The notes below the pieces were generated by a model. The model was given only the letters and a program-made list of their open reading frames with translations, was not told the DNA's origin and made no database searches. A program made the position numbers and the translations under genes. 64,000 nt of DNA from an uncultured Gammaproteobacteria bacterium. Lineage in GTDB: Bacteria; Patescibacteriota; Patescibacteriia; Magasanikbacterales; UBA922. The stretch covers positions 22,561 through 86,560 of the forward strand of contig CAYUTO010000004.1 in the NCBI GenBank assembly GCA_964447765.1, in the 5' to 3' direction. Shown one piece after another: positions 2,462 through 64,000 of this stretch (its first letter is position 1; each line of letters starts with the position of its first letter).

Positions 2462-5400
2462 CTAAGGAATATTCAAAGCTTGAAGTTGCTGATTTAAAAC
2501 TGGGTCATTAGATTGGCGCACCACATCCCTTACATTTGTAACAAAATCCCTCATAGCAATAGAAATTGAATTAAAACCATCTGTTTTCATCGTATTTTGC
2601 ATCTGCTCAAGCGCAGCAAGATACGACCTAATATTATTTGAAGTAACAGAGGCACTATTCCAAGAAGCATGTACAGATTTCATTTTGTCATTTGACATTG
2701 CCCGACCATCCATATTGCGATAAAATTCAGCAATAGAGGGTAATTCATGATCGGAAAAACCATTCATCACCATCTTTCCTGTAGCGTCACGCCTAAGATC
2801 AGCATAACCAGAAATACTATCTGCACTAGAACGAGACGCGAACCAAGCAGTAAGTGTAGGATCGTTATTAGCAACAGAACGCCACTTATACTTCATCTTA
2901 CCAGTAGCCACATCTTCATCAGCATCAATAAGTCCGAGACCACTCGAATCACCCTTCATTGCAGCACTCTTAAGAGCACCTGAAAGGTCTTTAAGAGCCG
3001 ACTGGCGCTGATTATCATCAGTATACATATCATTAAATCGTTGTATTAATACCTTAACAAGCTCCTCTTCACGCTGATCATTGTTCAAAGCTGGAAATTG
3101 TTGTGCCACTTGCTGTCTCAAATCATTAACAACTGCATTATCTAAACCAGTGTGCATCTGTAATCTAACTAATAAACGATTTTTAGCATTGAACTCCTGG
3201 ACACCAAGCTCGTCCATTGCACTAACCTTGGTATCACGCACTGTATCTCCATCTGCTTTTGCAACAAGAGTAGAAAATGCATTTTTCTGTTGTCTTAATT
3301 TAGTTAATTTTTCTGTCTCAGATTGGGAGACAGAACCCCCCGCTCGAATCACTTGTGCCTGTCTAGCTTCCTCATTACTTATTTGTCTAATGAGATATTT
3401 CTCCAATACTTTTTTATCATCATATTGCACATCACCAAACGATTCAGTCAATTTTTTTTCTTTTTCCGCAGCAGCTTTTCTGAGAATTGCCTCAGCTCGA
3501 GGATGATCACCTTGACTTTCATAAACCTGAGCACGTTGCTGTGCTGTCGCGTCGATCTGATCAAGTTCTAGCATTCCTTTAACACTTTCTAATTCTGCCT
3601 TCGCTTTTAATGAGGCTGTGAGTCCCCCAGATGCTAATAATTTCGCAATTTCTCCTAAAAGCAAAATTTCTTTCTCTGAATTTCTCGTATCCTCGATATC
3701 CTTCATCCGAGCCTTACTTTCAGCAATAATACCCTCTCTCTGTCCAAAAGCATAGGATGTTCTCGCTAATCGAGCCTCTGTTTCAGCAGCCCCTTGATCC
3801 AACTGAGCCTTATTTGAACCTTTCACATTTTCCAATTTCTTTTCTGCTGTGGTAGCAAGTTCATTGTACTTCTGGTACTCATCTCTCTCTGCAATGTCTT
3901 TTGTTAAATCTTCATCCCCCACAGCAGCAGCACGTTCTGCAGCAGTAATTGGTCTAAGCAATTCTTCAATTCTTTTCTCTTCATGATAATGATGATCACC
4001 TGCAACTTTTTGCTCAATTTGTTCCGTAATTGGCTTAAGTGTTGCCAATCTTTCTCGTATCTTATGAAATTCATCACTACCTTTATCACGATGCTCCTCC
4101 AAATCATCAGTCTTTTTTGCGATAGCCTGTTTCTCCTCAGTTTTTACAAGTTCCTCAAGATCATGACTTTTTGCTTTGGCACCAGCCAAAACCTTTCTAG
4201 ATTCTGTAAAAGACTTGTCACCTTTCTCCTGCAACCTAAGCCACTCTTCAGCCATTTTTTGTGGCCCCTTCGCAGATTTTGCTTTTTCTGCCTCATCAGC
4301 TTTTACACGTGCTGTTAATTTAATTTCACCACCCTTTGATCGACTTGTTGAAATCTTTGCCTCATGTTCTCGATCAGCCGCTGCTGCAATCTCCGACCAA
4401 TTTTCAGCTCGAGCATCCTTTCGTTTGTCAGACTCAAATATACTGCCATAAAGAGTTTTAGCTGCCCACCACCCAACTTTTCCTGCAACACCCTTTGCCT
4501 CTTCTTGTTTTTTCTCCATATCCTGTATCCTCTCATCACGACGCTGACCACTCTTTGTCTTGAGTGTTTTATACATACCAGCAATTTTTTCACCTTTTCT
4601 CGCCAACGACTTACCACCAATAATAGGGAAATCTGATTTCACTTTATCTACTGCACCACCTACGAGCCATCTACCTGCAGCATATCCCGTCGCGATAGTC
4701 GCTACATTCTTGGTAAAATCAATTGCACCACCCACGAGCCCCGCTCCTGTGGCCCCAGTCTCCTCAGTCTTCTTGATACCTACCCACAAAAAACCAATTC
4801 CAAGAAGGAAACTAGCAAAATTCTCCCAGGTAGAGATTTCAAGTACGGTGACTGATTGTTTCTCACCAGAAGAATTCAATTGAATTACATTCGGACCACT
4901 CTGAATTTCAGAGATAATCTGCCCAGTACCTAGCGTTGCAAATGCCAACCACAAGAAAAAAACCATGATTGGAGCAACAATCACATGCTTACTAAACTCA
5001 CTCCACCATTCAGTAGCATACTTCTCTCCCTTGGGAATCGCGTACAACATGAAAGCAAGAGGTGAGAGAACGATCAATGCCCACAAAACCACGATACGGA
5101 AAATCATGACGACCATGTACGCACCAATGGTGAGCGCTGCCAGAAGAGCAAATATAAAGGCAAGCACAGCTCCAGCAAAGAGTGTGAGACTAGCTACCTC
5201 CCGAGTAGCACCGAGCTCACTCGGAGAATTCTGAGCAAGCTCAAGAATCTTATCCATCTGAAACAAGGTAATCAGATTACCGCCCGCAGTTGCAGAAACT
5301 GCATTGAGGAAGGTAATCGTAAAGATATGAGCAACATCAATCACGAGCTGAGCTATCAAATTACTAAAATTAATCAAAATTGCCATGAGGACAATCTTTA

Positions 5401-5827
5401 CCAATCCATGTTTCCATTCATAACTCTCAAAACCTAAGATGGTCGCAAATGCAATAACAAGTAGACCAACGATAAAGAACATATTCGCAACATCCCGAAC
5501 CATTACCCACCCGAGCTTCACTACACTCACATCAATAAAATTGTTATAACTCGCAAGTGTAATAAATGCACGCAAGAAAAATATCGTCAAAAATATACAA
5601 AGCTTGGATAGTTCAATAAGAATGGTTGCAATCATATCTACCAGACCATTCAATACAGTCTCAACAACAACTGCTTGACTACTTACAAACCCCACACTCA
5701 ATACAGCAACCAATAACACACCAACGCCAAAAACCGGCCACCAAGTCCGTTTTTTGAGCGTATTCGGAAACAGTTTTGTATACGCTTGGCCGACACGAGC
5801 AGATACCCGTGCAAAAAAGCGCGTCAT
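2462..5827 (-). CDS. Large polytopic membrane protein (1121 aa): N-terminal domain with about 7 TM helices, then a roughly 600-aa K/E-rich coiled-coil region and a C-terminal globular domain; VirB6/TrbL-like topology (tentative)
   Basis: Hydrophobic segments in the first roughly 350 aa. A long charged heptad-like region follows (KADEAEKAKSAKG...EELVKTEEKQAIAKK...). No Walker motifs. Confidence 0.55.
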   Translation of the reverse strand: MTRFFARVSARVGQAYTKLFPNTLKKRTWWPVFGVGVLLVAVLSVGFVSSQAVVVETVLNGLVDMIATILIELSKLCIFLTIFFLRAFITLASYNNFIDVSVVKLGWVMVRDVANMFFIVGLLVIAFATILGFESYEWKHGLVKIVLMAILINFSNLIAQLVIDVAHIFTITFLNAVSATAGGNLITLFQMDKILELAQNSPSELGATREVASLTLFAGAVLAFIFALLAALTIGAYMVVMIFRIVVLWALIVLSPLAFMLYAIPKGEKYATEWWSEFSKHVIVAPIMVFFLWLAFATLGTGQIISEIQSGPNVIQLNSSGEKQSVTVLEISTWENFASFLLGIGFLWVGIKKTEETGATGAGLVGGAIDFTKNVATIATGYAAGRWLVGGAVDKVKSDFPIIGGKSLARKGEKIAGMYKTLKTKSGQRRDERIQDMEKKQEEAKGVAGKVGWWAAKTLYGSIFESDKRKDARAENWSEIAAAADREHEAKISTSRSKGGEIKLTARVKADEAEKAKSAKGPQKMAEEWLRLQEKGDKSFTESRKVLAGAKAKSHDLEELVKTEEKQAIAKKTDDLEEHRDKGSDEFHKIRERLATLKPITEQIEQKVAGDHHYHEEKRIEELLRPITAAERAAAVGDEDLTKDIAERDEYQKYNELATTAEKKLENVKGSNKAQLDQGAAETEARLARTSYAFGQREGIIAESKARMKDIEDTRNSEKEILLLGEIAKLLASGGLTASLKAKAELESVKGMLELDQIDATAQQRAQVYESQGDHPRAEAILRKAAAEKEKKLTESFGDVQYDDKKVLEKYLIRQISNEEARQAQVIRAGGSVSQSETEKLTKLRQQKNAFSTLVAKADGDTVRDTKVSAMDELGVQEFNAKNRLLVRLQMHTGLDNAVVNDLRQQVAQQFPALNNDQREEELVKVLIQRFNDMYTDDNQRQSALKDLSGALKSAAMKGDSSGLGLIDADEDVATGKMKYKWRSVANNDPTLTAWFASRSSADSISGYADLRRDATGKMVMNGFSDHELPSIAEFYRNMDGRAMSNDKMKSVHASWNSASVTSNNIRSYLAALEQMQNTMKTDGFNSISIAMRDFVTNVRDVVRQSNDPVLNQQLQALNIP

Positions 5828-5928: not shown

Positions 5929-7062
5929 CTATTCAACGACTTTTTTTGTTATTTTAGCAACAAAAAATCCTTCGATCTGGCTATTTGGTAAAATTCTCAA
6001 TACATTTTTTCTAATTGATTCACTAATCACGATATTCTTGAAAGAAGTTGCAATTGGTGCCACTTGAAGCTGAGGTAATACAATAGGTAAAAGCTCTGCC
6101 TCAGGAATCCGCTCAATAAATTTTTGTAACTGGACTTCATTTTCCTCAGGAGCAAAGGTACATGTAGAATACACTAGTACACCGCCCGGTTTCAGCATGT
6201 GCCATGCAGCTCGAAGCAAAATTCGTTGCGTATACGCCATTTCTTTAATTTTTCGTTCACTCCAGTACCCAAAACTCTTGGGATCTGTCGTATCAAACCG
6301 AGCTTCAGCGCTACAAGGTGCATCAAGTAGAATTTTATCAAAATAATTCTCATACTCTCGTGAAAGCTGAGCCCCATGCTCCATCCTAAGTGTGAATTTC
6401 CACCCTCCTGTGTCATTTCGAGCGACCGAGTCTCCGAGGGAGTCGAGAAATCCCTTGTTTAACGTAGAATTGCGGTTATGCAAGGGATCCCTCGATTCGT
6501 CGTGTGCCTCCTCACTCGGGATGACACTGCACGTCACCCCCAAAAGCTCCATATTATGCTTCAGCTTGAAAAAACGGACTTTATTCTTATCATTAGCGAC
6601 CAATTCACCTTTTTTCTCCATCATGGCAGTAATCTGGCTAGTTTTACTCCCAGGAGCTGCAGTAAGATCAAGAACTCTCTCCCCAGGTTTCGGATCCAGC
6701 ACTACCGGCGGAACCATACTAGCAAGGCTCTGAATATACAATTTTCCTTCAGAATAAAGCGACAAATCAGTTAGCTCTCGTTTTGATTTGTTGAGCAATA
6801 CAAAAGCACCGGGGTACCATGCAATTTTTTGAACTTTAAAGCCATTTTGCGACAATATAGGTAAGACCTCCGCTGAATTTGATTTGAGACTATTAATTCG
6901 AAACGTGGTTGGTCTACCAACAAACGTTTTCTCGATTTCACGAAAACGAGAAACACCAAAAATAAGAGAAGCCCGTTCAATAAATTTCTCAGGAAGATCT
7001 TTTCTAAATCCGTTTTTTCCTTTTTTCTTTCTTTTCATAATGCAATAGAACACGGATGACAC
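5929..7062 (-). CDS. rsmB: RNA m5C methyltransferase, NOL1/NOP2/Sun (RsmB/RsmF) family, carrying an in-frame insertion of about 40 aa
   Basis: SAM-binding motif VLDLTAAPGSKT; catalytic motifs DKILLDAPCS and PGGVLVYSTCT. A segment of about 120 nt between conserved motifs corresponds to a palindromic repeat element. Confidence 0.8.
   Translation of the reverse strand: MSSVFYCIMKRKKKGKNGFRKDLPEKFIERASLIFGVSRFREIEKTFVGRPTTFRINSLKSNSAEVLPILSQNGFKVQKIAWYPGAFVLLNKSKRELTDLSLYSEGKLYIQSLASMVPPVVLDPKPGERVLDLTAAPGSKTSQITAMMEKKGELVANDKNKVRFFKLKHNMELLGVTCSVIPSEEAHDESRDPLHNRNSTLNKGFLDSLGDSVARNDTGGWKFTLRMEHGAQLSREYENYFDKILLDAPCSAEARFDTTDPKSFGYWSERKIKEMAYTQRILLRAAWHMLKPGGVLVYSTCTFAPEENEVQLQKFIERIPEAELLPIVLPQLQVAPIATSFKNIVISESIRKNVLRILPNSQIEGFFVAKITKKVVE
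6409..6528. repeat. Structured palindromic element, copy 1 (family A), inserted in frame inside the rsmB-like CDS
   Basis: Nested inverted repeats: tgtgtcatttcgagcga...cgggatgacac (outer) and gagaaatcccttg...caagggatccctc (inner). Homologous to 48675..48791. Visibly G+C-richer than the flanking CDS. Confidence 0.75.
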
Positions 7063-7142
7063 GGAATTGTACAGAATGAAAACAGAATTAATTCGGTCTT
7101 TATTCCGTCAAATTCGTTCAATCCGCGTTCCATTATTAATAT

Positions 7143-8440: not shown

Positions 8441-8530
8441 ATAAAGTAAAAAGTAAAAACGAAAAAGTAAAAAGAAAAATGCTCAATCCACGTATTTTCT
8501 TTTTACTTTTGAGCTTTACCCTTTGACTTC
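8441..8530. repeat. A/T-rich palindromic element with tandem GTAAAAA-type arms (family B), copy 2
   Basis: Arm aagtaaaaagtaaaaacgaaaaagtaaaaag, spacer aaaaatgctcaatccacgtatt, inverted arm tttctttttacttttga. Homologous to 123..200. Confidence 0.6.
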
Positions 8531-22480: not shown

Positions 22481-23191
22481 TTATGCCGTAACTGTCTCTC
22501 CGGCTGACGTATCAGCTACTGGTTCGAGAACTGGTGCTTCCACTACTGACTCTTTGATTTCTTCAATAGTAATACTTCCGTCATTCGTAGAAATATAGAG
22601 GAGTCCATTTCGTGCTCCAGGAACCGCTCCTTTAATGAAGAGTTCATGTGCCTCAGGATGTACTTCAACCACTTCCAAATTTTTGACAGTTACCTGATCA
22701 GCTCCCATATGTCCTCCCATGCGCATGTTCTTGAAGACTCTCTGTACACCACCAGCTCCAATACTTCCAGGCATACGAAGGTTGTCTTTGTGTCCATGAC
22801 TTGCAGGACCTCCGGCAAATCCATGGCGTTTTACTACACCTTGGAAACCTTTTCCTTTTGACATACCAGTAACCTGCACTTTCTCGCCTGCAGCAAAAAT
22901 ACTTGCATTGAATTGATCACCTTTCTTAAGATTCTCTGATTCAGCTCTAAAATCCTTGAGGAATCGAACAGTTGCCTGTGGATCATTGTGTGCAGAAATT
23001 CCTTTGAGGTGACCTTTTTCAGATTTGCTCAAGCGGAATAATTTTTGACTTCCAAAGCCAATCTGAACTGCGCCTGGTTTTACCTGGGTTACTACACATG
23101 GACCTGCCTGAACACGAGTAACAGGAACTACCGTTCCATCAGCTCGAAACACCTGTGTCATTCCAATTTTTTTACCAATGATGAATTTCAT
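22481..23191 (-). CDS. rplC: 50S ribosomal protein L3
   Basis: MKFIIGKKIGMTQVF...; conserved L3 segments. Confidence 0.9.
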   Translation of the reverse strand: MKFIIGKKIGMTQVFRADGTVVPVTRVQAGPCVVTQVKPGAVQIGFGSQKLFRLSKSEKGHLKGISAHNDPQATVRFLKDFRAESENLKKGDQFNASIFAAGEKVQVTGMSKGKGFQGVVKRHGFAGGPASHGHKDNLRMPGSIGAGGVQRVFKNMRMGGHMGADQVTVKNLEVVEVHPEAHELFIKGAVPGARNGLLYISTNDGSITIEEIKESVVEAPVLEPVADTSAGETVTA

Positions 23192-27107: not shown

Positions 27108-28613
<1,506 letters not shown>

Positions 28614-39056: not shown

Positions 39057-39061
39057 ATTCG

Positions 39062-39134
39062 TCGGGCTGACACGACTTGAACGTGCGGCCTCATGACCCC
39101 CAGCCATGCGCTCTACCAACTGAGCTACAGCCCG
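39062..39134 (-). tRNA. tRNA-Pro (anticodon GGG)
   Basis: Manual fold of the reverse complement: acceptor CGGGCTG/CAGCCCG, D-arm GCTC-AGTTGGTA-GAGC, anticodon stem CATGG/TCATG with loop CTGGGGG, T-arm GCACG-TTCAAGT-CGTGT, discriminator A, no encoded CCA. Confidence 0.8.
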
Positions 39135-46563: not shown

Positions 46564-46675
46564 ATTCCGCCTTAATTCTGTTAAATTAGTTCGATTCCGT
46601 GTTCCATTAAGCGAATGTTTAATAGAACACGGATTGGACAGAATCACACGGAATAAAAAACGGATAAAATACCAT

Positions 46676-48674: not shown

Positions 48675-48791
48675 TGTGTCATTCCGAGCGAAGCGTAGCG
48701 AAGTCGAGGAATCCCTTGTTTAAAGTAATATTAACTTAATGCAAGGGATTCCTCGACTCCCCTCAAAGACTCGGGTCGCTCGGAATGACAC
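48675..48791. repeat. Structured palindromic element, copy 2 (family A), intergenic, 11 nt upstream of the queA start codon
   Basis: Perfect nested inverted repeats: gtcattccgagcg/cgctcggaatgac (outer) and gtcgaggaatcccttg/caagggattcctcgac (inner). Homologous to 6409..6528. Confidence 0.75.
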
Positions 48792-48829
48792 CGAGCGTAG
48801 AAAAACTCTACCTTAGAGTAAGCATTTTT

Positions 48830-50158
48830 TCAACTCTTATTTTTAGTCACAAACGCATGTACTGCCGGATCAGTCCAGACATGCTCACGTTTGAGCGGAC
48901 GACGAAGATGAAGCCCTTCAAACGTAGTACAGCGAGATAATGCGACATACACCTGGCCAGATACAAAAGTTCCGCTACCAATATCAAGCAATACTCGATC
49001 AAACGTTTTTCCTTGAGCTTTATGAATGGTGACCGCCCATGCAAGCTTCAGCGGATACTGTATAAATGAACCGACTGTTTCTGATTCCACCTGTTTGGTA
49101 GATGGATCAAAATAAAATCGATACATGTCCCAGGTGTACATCCCAATCAATACCTCATCACCTGAATCAAGAGTAACTTTAATCATTTCATCTTCACCTT
49201 CCACTTTAGAAAAACCTTTTACCACACCCATACTTCCATTATGCCATTTTCCCCACGGATCATTATGAAGGACCATCACTCTCGCACCAATTTTTAATTT
49301 GAGTTCAGCGTCAGTCGGAAACGCTCCCCGATCAAATTTATGCTCTACTCTACCAGTGAACACACGTTCTTTCTCTTCTAGAGCCTGCAGTTGCCCCTGA
49401 TTCACCGCAGACGCAAGTGCATTGGTCGTCGTGACCCACACACCATCATATGCAGCATGATCAAAATCTTCATCTACACAACGCTGATTGAGTACTTGTA
49501 GTTGTTCGGAAGTAAGTGTCATATCTCGCACTGCATTCAAGAGTGATATAAAATCTGTATCTGTCTGGCGATACATTTTTTCAAGCTCAATTATTTCTAA
49601 TTCAAAAATTTCTTCTTCGAGCATTTTTTTCTGCTTATTTCCCCCACACACATGCGCGGCAAAAAAATACGGAGAATCATATCGTTCAGAAAAAAACTGC
49701 TGTTCGCCTCTCGTGACCACGGGCGGCAATTGATAGAGGTCACCAATCAGAATCATTTGCACGCCACCAAATGGTTTTCGTTTATCTCTACCAGCTTTCC
49801 TGAGGAATATATCAATACAATCAAATAAGTCAGCCCGAACCATAGAAATCTCATCAATGACAATTGCATCCAGTTCGCGATAAATCTTTTTCTGCTCATC
49901 ATCTCCTCGAGGATTCTTAATAGTGTCAGGCGTAGTCTCTGGGGTAAACCCAAAAAAAGAATGAATCGTCTGCCCTTCCACATTCACTGCCGCAACCCCA
50001 GTCGGCGCCAATACTACAATCTTTTTCTTGGTATGATGACGAAAATAAGTAAGCAAAGTTGATTTTCCAGTCCCCGCGCGACCGGTAATAAAAAGATTCG
50101 TATGGGTGTTCTCCATACGATCGAGGGCTTTTTTGAACTGTACATTTTTATCAATCAT
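48830..50158 (-). CDS. PIF1/RecD-like ATP-dependent DNA helicase
   Basis: Walker A GRAGTGKST, motif II DEISMV, and LIGDLYQLPPV, typical of the PIF1 family. Confidence 0.8.
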   Translation of the reverse strand: MIDKNVQFKKALDRMENTHTNLFITGRAGTGKSTLLTYFRHHTKKKIVVLAPTGVAAVNVEGQTIHSFFGFTPETTPDTIKNPRGDDEQKKIYRELDAIVIDEISMVRADLFDCIDIFLRKAGRDKRKPFGGVQMILIGDLYQLPPVVTRGEQQFFSERYDSPYFFAAHVCGGNKQKKMLEEEIFELEIIELEKMYRQTDTDFISLLNAVRDMTLTSEQLQVLNQRCVDEDFDHAAYDGVWVTTTNALASAVNQGQLQALEEKERVFTGRVEHKFDRGAFPTDAELKLKIGARVMVLHNDPWGKWHNGSMGVVKGFSKVEGEDEMIKVTLDSGDEVLIGMYTWDMYRFYFDPSTKQVESETVGSFIQYPLKLAWAVTIHKAQGKTFDRVLLDIGSGTFVSGQVYVALSRCTTFEGLHLRRPLKREHVWTDPAVHAFVTKNKS

Positions 50159-56673: not shown

Positions 56674-59600
56674 CTATTTCAACTCTTCACCATCCTCATA
56701 CACTTCATTCTCATCAATTACGATGATGCGATCTCCTCTAAAGTTAAGTTTAGTGAATGCATCTTCAGTTACGATCCATCGTTTGATGAGCTTAGATGAA
56801 TCAGTAGGATCTACTTCAAGACGATACACTTTGGGAGAAGTAGTATATTTGATGAGGGTGTAGGCAGGATGAACGTCGGTTCTCGTAATCTCTTCACCCA
56901 CCTTATATGCATCAAGAAGACGAGGGTCTACATCTTCAATCCAGTCTGAGCGATAGTTCAACTTGTTGAACACTTCTTCACTGGTAATCCAGTATTTCGT
57001 ATCATTAATGAGTACATAGACTTTAGGATCATAGGGAGTTTTAATGAGTGCTCCATAGGTTGGACGATACAGGGGTCCGAGAGGTAAGAATGACAGCGGA
57101 TCAAGAGGGACTGAAGTGAGGGTTACATTGGTAACCACACCTACATCACTCCATGATGAGAAGTAAGTAAAATACGTTCGTTCATTCGGAATTGGCCGCC
57201 TCGTACAGTCTGACGTGACATAGAATACTGAAGGAGAGCCTGATGATTTATATGGCTGCTCCGGAGTAAGTGGACATGCGTTTGAGGTAAGGGTAATCGT
57301 GTCTGAAAGAATGAGTTCTCCCCCTTCAGGAGTTCGTAATTTAACGTATACGGTCTTTTCTCCATTCCCAAGAGGGAGCGTGTACCAGAGTGGAGAGATG
57401 AGTGATTCAAATGATCCATTGGCGAATGTAGGGTCAGTAGAAACAGCAACCATGGAAGCATTAGGTGAAGTTATATGCAGAGACACCAAGCGACTGTTTG
57501 TTGAGAGTGCTCCCTGGTTGATCGTGAAGTGAGATGCTGAAGACGGAAGGGTGGGAGGAAGGTATGGGATACCGCCGTTTGAGGAAGATGTATCGTTAGA
57601 GTCACTGTCACCCTCCCCTTCTTCACCCATCAGAGCAAAAAGTGAGAATCCAGGAGTGTCACAGGTGACGGTAAAAAGACTCGTGTTAATTGTGCACGGA
57701 GAGAGTTCGGTCCATGTGCTAGTTGCATAACGATAAATAACTAAGGTAGTAGGGTCGAGACTCCCAAGTGTATCTGGATCGTAGGTCATGGTGAGTTCAA
57801 TTGGTTCATCGAATTCTGAGATGATAGTTGAGGTGTTTGCAATTGCTTTGAGATGAAAAACGAGAGAACCAACGACTGTTCTACCAGCAGGAATGCCTCC
57901 GTCTTCAATCACCGTTACAGTATCTACTTGTTTAATCTGGAACACAACATCAGTGGAAGTAGTAAATGCAGGAGGAATATCAAGAGCAATACTCTCAGCT
58001 ACCGTCTCAAGTTGAATAGTAGCACCTAAACTTGAAGAAACTGCAGAACTCTCTGAAGCAATTACCGGCGCTGAAAATGAACACCCTTGAGTCACAAACG
58101 TGCGATGAGAACTAGTTGCAACATCACCATCAGCTGTCACAGCACGAGGAGTGTAGTGATAAACCGTACAAGGTAGTAACCCAGTCATCAAAACTTCATG
58201 AGTAGTAACTCTGGAAGATGTATTACTCTCAGTAGTCGAAACTCCCAGTGATGCAACCAACCCATACAACACTCGAGATGAAGCAAGTCGATTAGTAGAC
58301 CACGAGATAGTAGCAGTTGAAGTGCTGATATTAGTTGAAGTGACACTAGAAATGCTTAATAGTGCGTTAGTGATAGTAGAAGTAACAGAAGAATACGCAC
58401 TCGAAGTCGATACGTTATCAGCGCGCACTTGAAATGAATAACTAGAATTAGGAGTGAGTCCAGTAAAAGTATAACTTGTCTCAGTAGTAGTAACGACTGA
58501 CCCCACAGTACTAGAGATAGAGTAGAATGTTGCACCTGCAGCAGAAGACCACGACAATTGAACTGAAGAAGTAGAAAAAGTACTTGTAGTAAATTCAGGA
58601 GAGGAAAGACTAGTCAATTCTGAAAATGTCAAAATATATGCAGCTCCTGAATTAGAACCATTTACATTTGTTTCACTTGGAGCACCTACAATCAACACAT
58701 CATTAGTTTTATCAAAAGAAACCTCAACACCAAACCATGAATCAATACTTGCATCAGATGCAACCAATTTTTCATTCTCTTCCCAATCTCCACTTTCTCG
58801 GTCAAAAATATATACGGCTCCAGTGTCAGTAGTATTACCAGATGCACCAATCGCAACTTTCTCACCTAGACCATCGATTGCAACAGCTTCACCAAAAAAG
58901 TTACTTGCTGCAGCATCACTTGCGACAACCTTTTGATCTAATGACCACGATACCCCACTCCGCACAAAAACATACCCCGAACCAGAAGCACTCCCAGCGT
59001 CATCATTTGAATAAGCTCCAACAACGACATACTCCCCTGAATCAGAAATGGAAACTGCATTACCAAAAAAATCACTAGCGGCAGGATCATTTGCATTTAG
59101 TTTTGCCTGTTGAGCCCAAGTACTGGTCGTACGATAAAACACATAGGCAGAACCAGAACTAAGAGCAGTATCATCATCATTCGGAGCTCCGACAAGTATA
59201 TAATCACCTGATTCTGAGATATCTACAGCTCGACCAAACCAATCGTCAGCCGCCCGGTCGGTAGGAACTATTTTTTGCTGTTGTGACCATACTCCACTTC
59301 CATCTCTTTTAAAAATATATGCAGAGCCTGCTGCACTCAATGTATTAGCACCCGCAGCATCCTGATCCTCGCGATATGCACCAATAATTGCATATTCACC
59401 CGCCATAGCAAGTTTATCACCAAAAAAATCTTGATTTGCAAGATCACTTGAAACAAGTCTTTGATGAAGATCCCATGAGGAGCCCGTACGTTTATAGACA
59501 AACACCGCACCAGCCTGCGACCCATCATTATGGTCGGTCACCATAGCATAATCACCCGCAATCGCTACATTTTCCGCAAAAAAAGTAGAACCAGTCGATG

Positions 59601-59868
59601 TGGTAATCATCGCCTGCTGAATCCAAGAACCATCCTCAAAATGAAAAATATAAGCTTTCTTTTGATTATCAACTCCAACTATTGCATAGTCGCCAGAGAC
59701 ATCAACTGAGTATCCAAATCCCTGACTAGCCACTCCATCTGAAGGAAGAATTTTAGCATCTTCTACCCAAGCGGCCCGAATAAAATCAAAATGAATATAA
59801 AAAGATAAAAAACCAAAAGCAATAATGCTTAAAATCCAAAAAGATTTGTTAAAAAGAAATTTTTGCAT
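56674..59868 (-). CDS. Giant secreted or surface-anchored protein (1064 aa): N-terminal signal/anchor, FG-GAP-like beta-propeller repeats, two FN3-like domains, conserved C-terminal module of about 450 aa
   Basis: N-terminal hydrophobic segment. Repeats of the type DFFGxAVxIxxxGDYxxVGAP. FN3-like segments (LSWSSAAGATFYSIS...SYSFQVRADN). The C-terminal region is nearly identical to its downstream paralog. Confidence 0.7.
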   Translation of the reverse strand: MQKFLFNKSFWILSIIAFGFLSFYIHFDFIRAAWVEDAKILPSDGVASQGFGYSVDVSGDYAIVGVDNQKKAYIFHFEDGSWIQQAMITTSTGSTFFAENVAIAGDYAMVTDHNDGSQAGAVFVYKRTGSSWDLHQRLVSSDLANQDFFGDKLAMAGEYAIIGAYREDQDAAGANTLSAAGSAYIFKRDGSGVWSQQQKIVPTDRAADDWFGRAVDISESGDYILVGAPNDDDTALSSGSAYVFYRTTSTWAQQAKLNANDPAASDFFGNAVSISDSGEYVVVGAYSNDDAGSASGSGYVFVRSGVSWSLDQKVVASDAAASNFFGEAVAIDGLGEKVAIGASGNTTDTGAVYIFDRESGDWEENEKLVASDASIDSWFGVEVSFDKTNDVLIVGAPSETNVNGSNSGAAYILTFSELTSLSSPEFTTSTFSTSSVQLSWSSAAGATFYSISSTVGSVVTTTETSYTFTGLTPNSSYSFQVRADNVSTSSAYSSVTSTITNALLSISSVTSTNISTSTATISWSTNRLASSRVLYGLVASLGVSTTESNTSSRVTTHEVLMTGLLPCTVYHYTPRAVTADGDVATSSHRTFVTQGCSFSAPVIASESSAVSSSLGATIQLETVAESIALDIPPAFTTSTDVVFQIKQVDTVTVIEDGGIPAGRTVVGSLVFHLKAIANTSTIISEFDEPIELTMTYDPDTLGSLDPTTLVIYRYATSTWTELSPCTINTSLFTVTCDTPGFSLFALMGEEGEGDSDSNDTSSSNGGIPYLPPTLPSSASHFTINQGALSTNSRLVSLHITSPNASMVAVSTDPTFANGSFESLISPLWYTLPLGNGEKTVYVKLRTPEGGELILSDTITLTSNACPLTPEQPYKSSGSPSVFYVTSDCTRRPIPNERTYFTYFSSWSDVGVVTNVTLTSVPLDPLSFLPLGPLYRPTYGALIKTPYDPKVYVLINDTKYWITSEEVFNKLNYRSDWIEDVDPRLLDAYKVGEEITRTDVHPAYTLIKYTTSPKVYRLEVDPTDSSKLIKRWIVTEDAFTKLNFRGDRIIVIDENEVYEDGEELK

Positions 59869-59929
59869 AGTCCTATAATAAAGTATAGTGATAGTATATC
59901 ATATCAAAAAATAAAAATTTTAACCTTCT

Positions 59930-62900
59930 TTATTCCAAACTTTCACCATCTTCATACACTTCACTCTCACCAATCACGATGATTCGATCTCCTCTGAAGT
60001 TGAGTTTCTTGAACGCGTCCTCAGTTACAATCCAGCGCTTGATAAGTTTGGTTGCATCAGTAAGATCAACTTCAAGACGATAGACCTTGGGGGAATTTTG
60101 GTACTTAATCAGAGTGAACGCAGGATGAACGTCAGTTCGAGTTATTTCTTCTCCTACATTATATGCATCAAGAAGACGAGAATCTACATCCTCGATCCAG
60201 TCTGAGCGATAGTTAAGTTTAGCGAATACTATCTCATCCGTGACCCAATATTTGGTGTCGTTAATCAAAACGTATACTTTGGGATCTCCCGGTGTCTTGA
60301 TGAGTGCTCCATAGGTAGGACGGTACAAAGGACCAAGAGGAAGGAAAGAGAAAGCATCGAGAGGCACTGAAGTAAGAGTAGCAAGAGATACAACACCTAC
60401 ATCGCTCCATGATGAAAAGTAAGTAAAATACGTTCTTTCATTCGGAATTGGCCGTCTCGTACAGTCTGACGTGACGTAGAATACTGAGGAAGAACTCAAT
60501 GTTTTGTAGGGACGCTCTGGTGTAAGTGGGCATGCGTTTGAGGTTAGAGTAATAGTATCTGAGAGGATGAGCTCTCCCCCTTCAGAGGTTCGTAATTTGA
60601 TATAAACCGTCTTTTCTCCATTCCCGAGAGGGAGTGTATACCAGAGTGGAGAAATCAGTGATTCAAATGATCCATTGGTAAATGTAGAATCAGAAGAGAC
60701 AGCAACCATCGAAGCATTAGGTGAAGTTATATGCAGAGACACCAAGCGACTGTTTGTTGAGAGCGCTCCTTGATTAATAGTAAATTGAGATACCGAAGAC
60801 GGAGGGGCGGGAGGGATATATGGGATACCACCGTTTAAGGGAGATGTATCACCAGCACCACCCTCATCATCCCCTTCTTCTCCCATAAGAGCAAAAAGTG
60901 AGAATCCAGGGGTGTCACAAGTAACGGTAAAGGCGTTCGTATTTACAGTGCAAGGAGAAAGTTGTGTCCATTCGTCATCAGTATATCTAAAGATTGACAA
61001 CGTCGTTGTATCAATCCCCTCAAGGTCACTTGGATCATACGTCATAGTAACCTCAACCGGTTCATCAAAAGTTGAGATAATAGTTGAAGTGTCTGAAATA
61101 GCTTTAAAATCAAAAACAAGAGACCCGATAATATTTTTACCCGCAGGCAACCCTCCATCAGTCGTAACAATATCCTTCTCAAGTCGCTTGAGCTGAAAAG
61201 CGGCGGCAGTCGTACTTGTAAATCCAGTTGGCACAGTAAGGGAAACCCCGTTACCTGATTCCAAAAACGTAATCGACCCTCCAGACGAAGAAGACACTAC
61301 GGAAGCTTCATGAGATATAATTGGTGCAGAAAATTGACACCCCCGAGTAGCAAAGGTGCGTTTAGAACTCGTAGTAAAATCTCCTGATCCTGCAACCGCT
61401 CGAGGTGTATAATTATAAACCGTACAAGGAACAAGATTAGTAAGAGAAACCTCATGATCAAGAACTCGAGTGAGTGTATTGATTTCTGTAGTAGACACAC
61501 CGAGGGAAGTAATAAATCCGTATAAAATTCGAGAAGACGCAGGGCGGTTCGTAATCCAAGAGATAGTTGCAGTCGAAGTTCCAACGTTAGTTGAAGTCAC
61601 ATTTGAAATAACAAGAGTTGGTTGTGTTGAGGTGGTAAAAACAGAAGAATAAGAACTTGAAGTTGATAAATTATTTGCTCGTACTTGGAACGAATAACTC
61701 GTATTAGGATTAAGTCCAGAAAAAGTATAATTAGTTGCAGCAGTAGTAACTGGAGAAGTCGCAGTTGAAGAAACAGTATATGAGGTTGCACCAGAAACAG
61801 GTGACCATGAAAATGGTATAGAAGCTGCCGCAGCGGTAAAAGAAACAAACGAAGGAACTCCAAGAGAACTTCCCTCGGAGAGGGTGAACATCATAATTCG
61901 AGAATTCCCATTATCAGCCACATATAACCGATCATTATTAGAATCATAGGTTACCCCCTTAGGTGTTGCAAATTTTGATTGCGAAGCAGAGCCTGCTGCA
62001 CCCGTAAAATCAGTCTGCCCAAGAACATAACTTGCATTCATGCCATTTGAAATTGTGGTTGTTGAAAAGTCATATACTACCACTCGATCACTATCATTAT
62101 CTCCCACAAATAAACGTTGATTTTCTGCATCATACGCAAGACCTTGCGGATCATCTAATCCCGATTGTGTTGCAGCTGCAGAACTCCCTGTAAACGTTGA
62201 CTGACCAAGAACATAACTCGCACTTGGAAAATCAACTTCAGTCGTATTTGCAGGCGAAGCATCAAAAATAGATATTCTGTGAGCTGTAGTTTGAGTAACA
62301 TACAGACGTTCATTATCAACATCATAGGTCACGCCTCGCGTGCTAGGTAATGATGAAGTACTGATACCTGAATAGCCATTATCGAAATCCGGTGCACCAA
62401 AAATATATTTAGCATTCATACCATTTGAAATGGTACTCGTTGCAACATCGAACACAATAACTACTGCACCGCCCACAAAAAGTCGCTGATGTACAGGGTT
62501 ATAAGCCAACCCTGCTGGACTTGATAAACCTGCTTGTGTACCTAAAGCACTACCGTTCGTAAATAGAATCTGTCCAAGAACATAATTAGCAGGCATGCCG
62601 TTCGAAATTGTCGTTGTAGAAAAATCGTATACCTTAACACGATTATTACCTGTATCAGAGACAAACAAACGATTACTCACCAGATCATATGCAAGTCCGT
62701 CAGTATTATTGAAACCTACTTGGGTAGTCGCCGAACTATTGCCAGTAAATAAAGCTTGTCCAAGAATATGTAACGCAGGCTTACCATTTGAAATAGTCGT
62801 TGTGGAAAAATCAAAAATACTTACACGATTCGAATTAGACACAAAAAGTCGGCTATTATTTGAATCATACACGAGACCGTCAGGTGAAACCAATCCTACC

Positions 62901-64000
62901 TGAGTACTACCACTACTACCTACAGTAAAAGTGGTTTGTCCAAGCACATAGCTTGCACTCATACCATTCGTAATGGATATTGAAAGATCAAATACTAACA
63001 CTCGATTATTACCACCATCCGTAACAAAAAGATAATCATTTTCATAGTCATAGGCAAGACCCTGAGGAGCACTCATACCACTTTGAGTAGTAGCTTGCGT
63101 CTTAGTATTAAAATTAGACTGGCCCAATACATAATCAGCCTCATAATCAATTAAATCATTATTACTATCAAGAGTATGGACCAACACTCGATGATTCTGA
63201 TCATCCGACACAAACAACCGATGATTCACCGTATCAAGAAAAGTATAGTAAGGAAAATCAAACCCAATTCGTGTAGGACCATTATTGTAGCCAACTCTCG
63301 TATAAACTGGCACCAACTGATCACTGTCATTATAGTCAAAATGTCCAAGTAAATCAGTTGCGTTCATCCCATTAGTAATAGTTGATGTAGCCGCATTAAA
63401 AATACTCACTCGATTAGTACTATCTTGGACTACATACAATTTACCAGTCGTCTCATTATAAGCAAGCCCCCCTGACCCAAGAGTACTCGACTGTGTCGTA
63501 GCAAACGTAGAAGTAGTAAAATTCGGTTGACCTAACTGATAAGTAGCATTTTCTCCATTAGTAATAGACGCAACATCATATACTACAACTCGTCGATTAG
63601 AAGAATCATTTACAAATAAACGATTACTTATAGAATCATATGCGATACCACTAGGTGCACTCAATCCCGATTGAGTTGTAGCAGCAGTACTACCGGTAAA
63701 CGTAGTTTGTCCCAACACATAATTAGCAGGCATACCGTTCGAAATTGTCGTTGTAGAAAAATCATAGACGCTAACACGATTCGCATTTCCACCTTGCGCA
63801 ACAAATAAACGGTTATAAACCGAATCATAAGCAAGTCCCGTAGGGCCCCGAGTACTAGTTTGAGTCGTAACACCAGTGCTGGCCGTGAATGTAAGTTGTC
63901 CCAACACATAATTAGCAGGCATACCGTTCGAAATTGTCGTTGTAGAAAAATCATAGACGCTAACACGATTATTACCTGTCTGTCCAACAAATAATCGACT
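59930..64000 (-). CDS. Giant surface protein, paralog (more than 1356 aa; N-terminus lies beyond the window): NHL-type beta-propeller repeats, FN3-like domains, shared C-terminal module
   Basis: The frame stays open from the first in-window ATG (63922) up to the window edge. The repeat unit is LAYDxxxNRLFVxDxxNNRVxVYD. The C-terminal 450 aa are about 90% identical at the DNA level to 56674..58200. Confidence 0.7.
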   Translation of the reverse strand, partial: SRLFVGQTGNNRVSVYDFSTTTISNGMPANYVLGQLTFTASTGVTTQTSTRGPTGLAYDSVYNRLFVAQGGNANRVSVYDFSTTTISNGMPANYVLGQTTFTGSTAATTQSGLSAPSGIAYDSISNRLFVNDSSNRRVVVYDVASITNGENATYQLGQPNFTTSTFATTQSSTLGSGGLAYNETTGKLYVVQDSTNRVSIFNAATSTITNGMNATDLLGHFDYNDSDQLVPVYTRVGYNNGPTRIGFDFPYYTFLDTVNHRLFVSDDQNHRVLVHTLDSNNDLIDYEADYVLGQSNFNTKTQATTQSGMSAPQGLAYDYENDYLFVTDGGNNRVLVFDLSISITNGMSASYVLGQTTFTVGSSGSTQVGLVSPDGLVYDSNNSRLFVSNSNRVSIFDFSTTTISNGKPALHILGQALFTGNSSATTQVGFNNTDGLAYDLVSNRLFVSDTGNNRVKVYDFSTTTISNGMPANYVLGQILFTNGSALGTQAGLSSPAGLAYNPVHQRLFVGGAVVIVFDVATSTISNGMNAKYIFGAPDFDNGYSGISTSSLPSTRGVTYDVDNERLYVTQTTAHRISIFDASPANTTEVDFPSASYVLGQSTFTGSSAAATQSGLDDPQGLAYDAENQRLFVGDNDSDRVVVYDFSTTTISNGMNASYVLGQTDFTGAAGSASQSKFATPKGVTYDSNNDRLYVADNGNSRIMMFTLSEGSSLGVPSFVSFTAAAASIPFSWSPVSGATSYTVSSTATSPVTTAATNYTFSGLNPNTSYSFQVRANNLSTSSSYSSVFTTSTQPTLVISNVTSTNVGTSTATISWITNRPASSRILYGFITSLGVSTTEINTLTRVLDHEVSLTNLVPCTVYNYTPRAVAGSGDFTTSSKRTFATRGCQFSAPIISHEASVVSSSSGGSITFLESGNGVSLTVPTGFTSTTAAAFQLKRLEKDIVTTDGGLPAGKNIIGSLVFDFKAISDTSTIISTFDEPVEVTMTYDPSDLEGIDTTTLSIFRYTDDEWTQLSPCTVNTNAFTVTCDTPGFSLFALMGEEGDDEGGAGDTSPLNGGIPYIPPAPPSSVSQFTINQGALSTNSRLVSLHITSPNASMVAVSSDSTFTNGSFESLISPLWYTLPLGNGEKTVYIKLRTSEGGELILSDTITLTSNACPLTPERPYKTLSSSSVFYVTSDCTRRPIPNERTYFTYFSSWSDVGVVSLATLTSVPLDAFSFLPLGPLYRPTYGALIKTPGDPKVYVLINDTKYWVTDEIVFAKLNYRSDWIEDVDSRLLDAYNVGEEITRTDVHPAFTLIKYQNSPKVYRLEVDLTDATKLIKRWIVTEDAFKKLNFRGDRIIVIGESEVYEDGESLE

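Follow-up and report, generated by a model that had tools for sequence, protein, structure and literature searches.

Two lines of earlier work bear on short bacterial hairpin repeats with a CGTC-type tag. The CGTC repetitive extragenic palindromes (REPs) described by Di Nocera et al. in 2013 (PMC3733652) have a tag that is often TGTC, stems that begin with an A-T pair, a short tail and a mostly inverted dimeric arrangement; intragenic copies read in frame were found in several bacteria, including copies in uvrA, and are documented in Opitutus, Thauera and Thioalkalivibrio. The same authors equated RPE-4 and RPE-6, two of the Rickettsia palindromic elements (RPEs; Ogata et al. 2000), and the dRS3 repeats of Neisseria with CGTC REPs, noted that REPs affect mRNA stability, and reported no dedicated transposase, no known associated enzyme and no RAYT flanked by CGTC repeats. 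In 2025, Chenal et al. (PMC11893778) described the Ssn proteins, single-domain GIY-YIG proteins of ≈94 residues whose genes are flanked by hairpins (NTS or Ssn-related motifs, SRM). Ssn binds these hairpins only as single-stranded DNA, cutting a few nucleotides upstream, and does not act on RNA; a GTC upstream of the palindrome and a C after it are the critical bases, and the arrangement NTS-ssnA-NTS is similar to that of an insertion sequence. That paper makes no mention of intragenic copies or of Patescibacteria. Here, we describe a related element, a 118-nt nested palindrome that lies in frame within an RsmB/RsmF-type RNA methyltransferase gene, in a 64,000-nt stretch of DNA (the window: positions 22,561–86,560 of contig CAYUTO010000004.1, assembly GCA_964447765.1) from a genome of the Magasanikbacterales, a lineage of the Candidate Phyla Radiation (CPR, or Patescibacteria).

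The element is a gene-less inverted dimer of two hairpin units whose tags point outward. In the explanation that we favor, and regard as probable, these units are an extended form of the SRM type, the dimer sits in frame in a permissive loop of RsmF, and its presence there reflects a filter on the copies that survive inside genes; spread by an Ssn-type nuclease, the proposed source of the copies, is the less certain part. Our literature search, the coverage of which was incomplete, returned nothing relevant on palindromic elements or selfish DNA in CPR/Patescibacteria genes, and a search for the terminal sequence of the element returned only primers.

Anatomy and distribution of the element

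The first copy occupies positions 6410–6527 on the minus strand (118 nt, GTGTCAT...ATGACAC; plus strand GTGTCATTTCGAGCG...CACTCGGGATGACAC), where the GC content peaks at 0.56 compared to 0.40–0.45 nearby, in a window of 41% GC. The second copy, at 48676–48791 (116 nt; plus strand GTGTCATTCCGAGCG...CGCTCGGAATGACAC), is intergenic, 39 nt past the stop codon of its upstream neighbor, a PIF1-like helicase gene (48830–50158, minus strand), and 12 nt ahead of the start of its downstream neighbor queA (PF02547; 47582–48664, minus strand). Its termini form a perfect inverted repeat of 16 nt, and its inner stem has 18 bp. The copies are identical at 94 of 118 positions (80%) and align over their full length in both orientations, as expected for a palindrome, with the termini and the inner stem as the invariant blocks. 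The original prediction of a GC-richer palindrome of about 120 nt with nested repeats in the methyltransferase gene, and of a better-preserved copy elsewhere, was thus correct. A repeat finder recovered the two copies as direct family D12 and as inverted pairs I1, I11 and I13. The 16-mer of the inner stem occurs four times in the window, where 0.44 occurrences were expected, a number reached in none of 100 shuffles, and with up to three mismatches the terminal 15-mer and the inner 16-mer are confined to the two copies, apart from one match at chance level.

Folding of the copies as RNA and as DNA, a check proposed with the original prediction, gave structures unmatched by any shuffled sequence. 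The z-score was −10 to −12 for copy 2 (−40 kcal/mol as DNA) and −4 to −7 for copy 1 (−26 to −27 kcal/mol), which is the more degenerate of the two. We considered copy 2 as an intrinsic terminator and rejected this assignment: it has no T-run, and the terminator scan does not call it. Rfam contained no family that reached its gathering score, and the matches up to E = 10 were generic miRNA hairpins far below threshold; a BLAST search of the element against phage and plasmid collections gave no match.

With its filters switched off, a covariance model of the half-unit found exactly four units in the window (E from 1e-15 to 1e-20), which make up the two dimers and no others; the next-best match had E = 0.055. 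Copy 1 consists of unit 1a (6481–6528, minus strand; 60.5 bits, E = 6.5e-18), which is the head in the sense of the gene and has an ATCCC/GGGAT closing stem and a linker of type Y, and unit 1b (6409–6457, plus strand; 65.4 bits, E = 1.5e-19), with an ATTTC/GAAAT stem and a linker of type X. Between them lies an AT-rich spacer of 23 nt (6458–6480) that is free of stops in the frame of the gene (..HNRNSTLN..). In copy 2, unit 2a (48675–48718, plus strand; 53.8 bits) has a linker of type Z with a GCGAAGC-like mini-hairpin sequence, and unit 2b (48742–48792, minus strand; 68.1 bits) a linker of type X; both have the ATTCC/GGAAT stem. All four units carry the tag TGTC. The two stems of copy 1 are each internally compensated, so that the long hairpin formed by the whole dimer is weakened and each unit hairpin is kept.

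The general anatomy of the unit was determined from 105 distinct units, excluding those picked by the search pattern itself. In order, the unit has a (T/C)GTC tag, a 5-bp closing stem that starts with A-T (ATYYC...GRRAT), a tandem G·A/A·G step, a covarying base pair, a variable insert and a C-first tail. The search pattern itself required GTC, so that finding it throughout the set is no independent evidence of its conservation; the base before it is T in 75% and C in 15% of the units. The closing stem is fully complementary in 91 units, in four covarying states (TC:GA in 60 units, TT:AA in 15, CC:GG in 13 and CT:AG in 3), and the pair that follows the G·A/A·G step (N3:N3') is C:G in 56 and G:C in 34. 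At least 95 tails start with C, most often as CCC (61 of 105) or CTC (19 of 105). None of 10,000 shuffles reached the observed pairing, even when only one unit was taken per locus. The stem encloses an interior of 8–60 nt that varies in length and sequence; the complete units in the window are 44–51 nt long. We also considered the variable linker as a stable hairpin in its own right, a candidate that was dropped when the median z-score turned out to be only −0.35; as a class, the interior is not significantly structured.

The family extends well beyond the window. Scanning one genome per species with both inner arms as the pattern revealed seven more copies in four related metagenome-assembled genomes (MAGs), all of them intergenic and close to gene ends. 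Two of these MAGs are named Magasanikbacteria and two are labeled uncultured Gammaproteobacteria, one of which is the assembly that holds a Magasanikbacteria-like rsmF orthologue (P0004). One of the seven (at locus L011) is the positional orthologue of copy 2, with 96% identity. The claim that the insert belongs to a repeat family thus rests on two copies in the window and seven in relatives. A scan of metagenomes with one half-unit as the pattern yielded at least 120 loci from many environments, with GC contents from 0.28 to 0.68. The half-unit is the basic module at these loci: many elements are inverted pairs of 77–186 nt, and others are single units.

Insertion in frame is not peculiar to the methyltransferase gene. 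Among the metagenome matches listed, 31 long open reading frames (ORFs) span a unit. The ten clearest of these were tested, and all ten are conserved genes with Pfam matches on either side of the unit or across it: UvrA, MetRS, ThiI, MnmA, DnaX, Lpd, ComEC, a MiaB-like protein, an RMKL-type methyltransferase and an amine oxidase. Their domain matches exceed the lengths of the Pfam profiles by about the length of the insert.

Two further observations concern tandem repetition next to units. In the dihydrolipoamide dehydrogenase gene of locus L107 (9138–10664), three partial unit heads follow one another in frame (SVIPSNP SVISNDP SVISNDP) before a full head. Just 3' of many single units are short tandem repeats of 6–8 nt (TTCACGG, TTCACAC, AATGCAA, GAAAATT; loci L024, L025, L031, L044, L047, L092 and L101), which suggests composite elements of another kind.

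The host methyltransferase and its variable loop

The gene that carries copy 1 (5929–7062, minus strand) probably starts at the ATG at 7038 and encodes 369 residues with intact catalytic motifs. Its product matches PF01189 (E = 3e-43) in two segments separated by the insert, as well as the RsmF N-terminal domain, and its closest relatives are annotated as RsmB/NOP-family methyltransferases of Candidatus Magasanikbacteria. The DAPCS and STCT motifs, with the PC cysteine of motif IV and the TC cysteine of motif VI, are invariant in the alignment of homologues. An AlphaFold model (predicted TM-score of 0.81) gave as its best Foldseek matches in the PDB the RsmF of T. thermophilus, archaeal and eukaryotic Nop2, and the Fmu/RsmB and YebU/RsmF of E. 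coli, with TM-scores of ≈0.7 for the RsmF of T. thermophilus, Nop2 and Fmu. Judging by this model, the product is an RsmF-like m5C RNA methyltransferase of the class I fold.

Copy 1 is read through without a stop as 39–40 residues, SVIPSEEAHDESRDPLHNRNSTLNKGFLDSLGDSVARNDT, and the predicted junction peptides in the host protein are ...LLGVTCSVIPSEE... and ...VARNDTGGWK.... The placement originally proposed, between the S-adenosylmethionine (SAM)-binding and catalytic motifs with the frame unbroken, holds: motif I (DLTAAPGSKT) and motif IV (DAPCS) stand on either side of the insert. In the model, it falls between a helix (residues 161–173) and strands 215–226 (β3 of the Rossmann fold), with the loop anchored at about residues 176 and 217, and the predicted local confidence (pLDDT) drops below 50 only in the N-terminal tail and at residues 180–212. 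The insert is thus predicted to form a disordered surface loop of ≈40 residues, which is what the AlphaFold check suggested with the original prediction was meant to reveal. In the topology of class I methyltransferases, the helix-to-strand loops occupy the sheet edge on the other side from the loops for SAM binding and catalysis, and by this topology the insert would lie away from both.

Between the window and the other insert-bearing lineage (locus L001), the host gene has a synonymous divergence (dS) of ≈0.96 and a ratio of nonsynonymous to synonymous divergence (dN/dS) of 0.038, which shows that the enzyme has been maintained under strong purifying selection with the insert in place. The 118-nt segment appears to be translated, judging by the open frame and this selection. 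By comparison, the intergenic members of the family have at least one stop codon in 44 of 48 frames, and survival inside a gene would therefore require a rare variant or later repair. A pseudogene or an assembly chimera with an accidentally open frame might be suspected, given that hairpin repeats can misassemble and that copy 1 is the more degenerate copy. Yet two more assemblies, each built from its own read set (L009 and L010), contain the identical gene, which shows that it is not a chimera. The protein P0002, which is 91% identical to that of the window and is encoded at L001, keeps its frame despite an extra 24 nt (ARPELLEG; L001 1054–1077) inside one arm of the inner stem, so that insertions and deletions within the insert are apparently tolerated when they are a multiple of three. 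With the low dN/dS at this divergence and the intact motifs and fold, we consider this alternative very improbable.

The other simple account is that the 40 residues do not derive from a repeat and are either an ordinary loop specific to the lineage or a feature that the domain has had from its ancestry. The length of the loop at this site does vary widely among orthologues. Alignment to the intergenic copies refutes this account: the same DNA is found between genes in the window and at seven sites in relatives, and neither the palindromy at the nucleotide level nor the covariation of the units can be derived from constraints on a protein. A full HMMER search with the insert peptide gave no match among 1.84 billion representative proteins at E ≤ 0.001, and a word-indexed search produced no candidate; among the homologues aligned, no unrelated lineage carries the segment. 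An ordinary or ancestral loop is therefore scarcely credible.

The insert occupies a site that has been used repeatedly. Loop lengths could be parsed in 93 of 120 homologues, between the sequences ...HNMELLGV and W[KR]F.LRMEHG. In 44 of these the loop has at most 13 residues, with a mode of 7 (25 orthologues), in agreement with the claim that about 40 residues had been added to a normally short region; in the other 49 it has 16–74 residues. Among the homologues, only the window protein and P0002 share the copy-1 insert, which is thus not an ancestral feature; it is not a simple strain-specific insertion either, as the site is a hotspot that holds other repeats in other orthologues. The next relatives (P0003–P0008, 80–88% identical), which share the asnS–rsmF–large ORF synteny, have a different GC-rich hairpin at the same point, CCTCCCCT..AGGGGAGG, read in frame as PLQGRE or PLKGEG. 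This hairpin (CCTCCCC..GGGGAGG) also occurs directly after stop codons in the same genomes, like a terminator, and is absent from the window. Taken together, the sites of both kinds are L002 3560–3620; L004 3520–3570 and 4045–4063/4509–4527; L006 10540–10590; L008 3540–3580; and L001 1642–1660. Other orthologues carry the loop peptides CHCEE...ARNDS, RHSEQ...TQDDK, RHPEQ...AQNDD and SFPCRGESS...RGNDR, and P0113 has four RDDK tails. By back-translation, these peptides would reflect further families of TGTC/CGTC-tagged hairpins. The loop of the methyltransferase thus appears, on these sequences, to be a hotspot that several unrelated repeat families have colonized in about half of the orthologues.

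The history of the insert does not follow that of the gene. The synonymous difference between the window and L001 is 0.11 in the insert compared to 0.54 in the host gene. Over the whole gene, the third-position distance of the window is 0.23 to L002, which has the different insert, and 0.35 to L001, which has the same one. Forty quartet sites, spread along the gene, group the window with L002; 14 group it with L001, and 9 of these lie within 17 codons of the insert. The distribution of the insert therefore departs from the tree of the host gene, a pattern that would fit recombination of loop alleles, repeated insertion or constraint on the element. These data are what one would expect if homologous recombination with a related Magasanikbacteria lineage, and not a de novo insertion, had brought in or exchanged the insert-bearing loop allele. 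Some of the shared states in the flanks are also found in outgroups and may be ancestral, however, the mosaic analysis covers seven sequences, and re-insertion at the hotspot or constraint at the nucleotide level would look similar. We regard allele exchange as a serious contender, somewhat short of an even chance.

The same conservation could mean that the insert has been co-opted, either as a hairpin that regulates the methyltransferase mRNA in its expression or stability, or as a functional peptide loop. In each unit of copy 1, compensatory changes preserve the closing stem even as the long hairpin loses strength, the synonymous sites of the insert are more conserved than those of the host gene, and an effect of REPs on mRNA stability has been described (PMC3733652). 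Both stem variants are ordinary for the family, however, the predicted loop is disordered, and the same loop holds unrelated repeats in other orthologues and none in about half of them. Moreover, the known nuclease of such hairpins leaves RNA alone (PMC11893778). Co-option is, in our view, improbable.

Association with Ssn-type nucleases and origin of the element

At several of the metagenome loci, the extended units of the kind found in the window accompany small GIY-YIG genes. In L041, L043 and L094, two inverted extended units enclose such a gene exactly; in L041 the layout is unit, 11 nt, an ORF from ATG to TAG, 2 nt and unit, and in L094 the gene is frameshifted. One extended unit precedes the ATG of a GIY-YIG gene by 13–30 nt in L114, L023 and L085. 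The ORFs bracketed by units were GIY-YIG genes and host genes only, with no transposase-like ORF among them. NCBIfam had no specific model for the GIY-YIG proteins.

We also selected six GIY-YIG loci without reference to the repeat, from relatives among the Magasanikbacteria, Moraniibacteria, another Patescibacteria genome, Phycisphaerae and Zixibacteria. A tagged hairpin is found 11–50 nt before the start codon in all six, and an inverted unit lies at the stop codon or overlaps it in five. In L174, from Zixibacteria, the nearest downstream unit is direct and an inverted one is found farther on; a unit with an extended loop is present there. Over the eleven relatives covered, seven have a small GIY-YIG gene enclosed exactly by two such units, and the remaining four have the upstream unit at least. 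The published SRM motif, HGTCWYN(0-2)YYVSBRHN(0-5)WNVSBRGN(0-2)RNCYNB, matches short units at three of the six loci (L003, L148 and L164) and none of the extended units of L041, L043 and L094. All four units of the window have the features critical to cutting and binding by SsnA, a GTC just ahead of the palindrome and a C just behind it. Related Magasanikbacteria encode an Ssn homologue (L003 and L172).

Some details of these cassettes are worth recording. At L003 (4003–4345), the ssn-type gene is bracketed by canonical short units (TGTCATTCCCGCGAAAGCGGGAATC and its inverse) and lies immediately downstream of an insert-free rsmF orthologue of a related MAG. At L172 (880–912), the Ssn ORF enters its own right-hand hairpin unit, which encodes the C-terminus (..RSPLSRG*). 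At L148 (440–560), three degenerate unit heads (TTGTCATCCTC...) stand in tandem upstream of the ssn cassette.

The element shares with the SRM/Ssn system (PMC11893778) the (C/T)GTC tag, a palindrome that begins with A-T (ATTCC...GGAAT) and is directly followed by C, inverted copies that bracket a GIY-YIG gene of ≈94 codons, and hundreds of dispersed copies in some genomes; the short units beside the GIY-YIG genes of relatives fit the SRM motif itself. The window units differ in that their hairpin contains an additional segment of 20–30 nt, made up of the tandem G·A step and the variable insert, which places them outside the published pattern, and in that they form tight dimers around no gene. 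Since the SRM motif misses both the window units and other extended units, we place the element as an extended variant of the CGTC-tagged REP/SRM superfamily and not as a canonical SRM, an assignment that anatomy and context demonstrate.

With CGTC REPs 1–4 the element has in common the CGTC/TGTC tag, the A-T start of the stem, the short unpaired tail, a predominance of inverted dimers that fold singly or as one long hairpin, frequent heterodimers and intragenic in-frame copies. The REPs have stems of 8–9 bp with loops of 4–5 nt and a CCA tail, whereas the window units have a 5-bp stem followed by the tandem G·A step and one pair, an enclosed interior of 20–60 nt, and a CCC tail. The original prediction likened the element to RPEs. 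The likeness stands insofar as the element is a palindromic repeat, in frame in a conserved gene under selection, predicted to form a surface loop and also present between genes, and insofar as its tag, AT-first stem and C tail assign it to the superfamily that includes RPE-4 and RPE-6; this assignment was made through the classification in PMC3733652. The host is a CPR bacterium and not an alphaproteobacterium, the architecture and length of the unit are different, and one coding copy in 64 kb does not amount to proliferation at high frequency. The surprise attached to such behavior is also reduced, because in-frame palindromic repeats were already known in Opitutus, Thauera and Thioalkalivibrio.

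The element could alternatively be a classical MITE (a miniature transposable element with inverted repeats) or a REPIN, moved by a conventional transposase or a RAYT of the IS200/IS605 type and not by an Ssn-type nuclease. It has terminal inverted repeats, a length under 300 bp, no coding capacity, a hairpin and multiple copies, as MITEs do, and like the ERIC, Nezha and Correia elements (PMC10969869) it is occasionally translated within host proteins. REPINs have the same design, a non-autonomous inverted pair of units that mirrors a single-gene cassette with the same units, and likewise show no target-site duplication; in addition, no nuclease gene lies nearby in this genome fragment. However, the tag is TGTC/CGTC and not GTAG, the cassette gene encodes a GIY-YIG nuclease in place of a Y1 HUH transposase, and the units bracket no transposase-like ORF. 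Unlike the MITEs, the 72 full elements compared show no target-site duplication, there is no related insertion sequence with a classical transposase, and the earlier survey likewise found RAYTs unaccompanied by CGTC repeats (PMC3733652). Movement by such an enzyme thus seems unlikely.

Under the explanation by SRM-type units and Ssn, the architecture of the window dimer is that of the unit–gene–unit cassette with the 23-nt AT-rich spacer in place of the gene. Copies would be generated by processing of hairpins in single-stranded DNA by a cognate Ssn-type nuclease acting in trans, a step that we propose on the geometry of the cassettes and the published biochemistry of their relatives and rate as almost evenly balanced, leaning slightly to the negative. 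Copies would also move between related lineages by homologous recombination. Inside genes, only the rare copies that are stop-free, have a length divisible by three and fall in permissive loops would survive, and such a filter would account for the accumulation of repeats in one loop of many orthologues. In its broadest form, the idea is that extended SRM dimers are non-autonomous offspring of unit–ssn–unit cassettes, copied by Ssn, and a major source of lineage-specific protein insertions in CPR and other environmental bacteria; that permissive loops are recolonized; and that the units create Ssn-dependent recombination breakpoints within genes, which, if true, would explain the mosaic ancestry around the insert. 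This wider scheme is speculative, and we think it rather doubtful.

Several results weigh against our explanation. Most of the loci that tie extended units to GIY-YIG genes had been picked for containing the unit. The SRM motif has no match in the window, and tblastn found no GIY-YIG gene anywhere in the window (64 kb) or in the 56 kb that surround the seven related copies (L011–L017). Whatever offset was taken for the boundary, flanking direct repeats of 2–8 nt were not enriched in the 72 full elements. Ssn cuts single-stranded DNA and modulates transformation, and is not known to transpose repeats (PMC11893778). At the rsmF site there is no clean pair of filled and empty alleles, as the closest relatives carry a different repeat at the same point. 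Finally, translation of the segment is deduced from the open frame and from selection, and the position of the insert away from the active site is deduced from the topology of the fold.

Other features of the window and wider meaning

Downstream of the methyltransferase gene, an ORF of 1,121 residues without a Pfam match (2462–5827, minus strand) is a conserved neighbor in all relatives; in L006, its homologue is followed by PrgI, TraC-like and VirB4-like genes. A second small intergenic motif, AATAGAACACGGAT..., is shared by positions 7044–7115, directly upstream of the methyltransferase gene, and 46572–46668 (73% over 48 nt), and lies within a local palindrome at both sites. AT-rich inverted repeats of AAGTAAAAAG-like words are found in two intergenic regions (125–206 and 8443–8529). 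In the regions 56675–61824 and 61900–64000, two stretches 3,256 nt apart are duplicated at 72–80% identity, and beyond them is a long array with a period of ≈186 nt that probably derives from genes for large repeat-domain proteins. The window also contains a full-length 16S rRNA gene without insertions (27109–28612) and the only tRNA gene in the 64 kb, for Pro-GGG (39061–39134).

In-frame palindromic repeats, the hairpin superfamily and its nuclease were already known. What is new is that the unit has an extended form that escapes the published motif, that this form occurs in a CPR lineage and has inserted there in frame, and that one methyltransferase loop has apparently been colonized, in about half of the orthologues, by several repeat families unrelated to one another. 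The finding joins three subjects, the RPEs within genes, the orphan class of CGTC REPs and the Ssn nucleases described in 2025, and carries all of them over to the Candidate Phyla Radiation. Hairpin repeats in frame lengthen CPR proteins and make them more diverse, and can lead alignments, domain assignments and phylogenies astray; they can be flagged with a unit model like ours. The RsmF loop itself is a natural experiment on where proteins tolerate random additions of 30–70 residues. If Ssn does spread these units, the extended units would represent new substrates and specificities for this family of nucleases.

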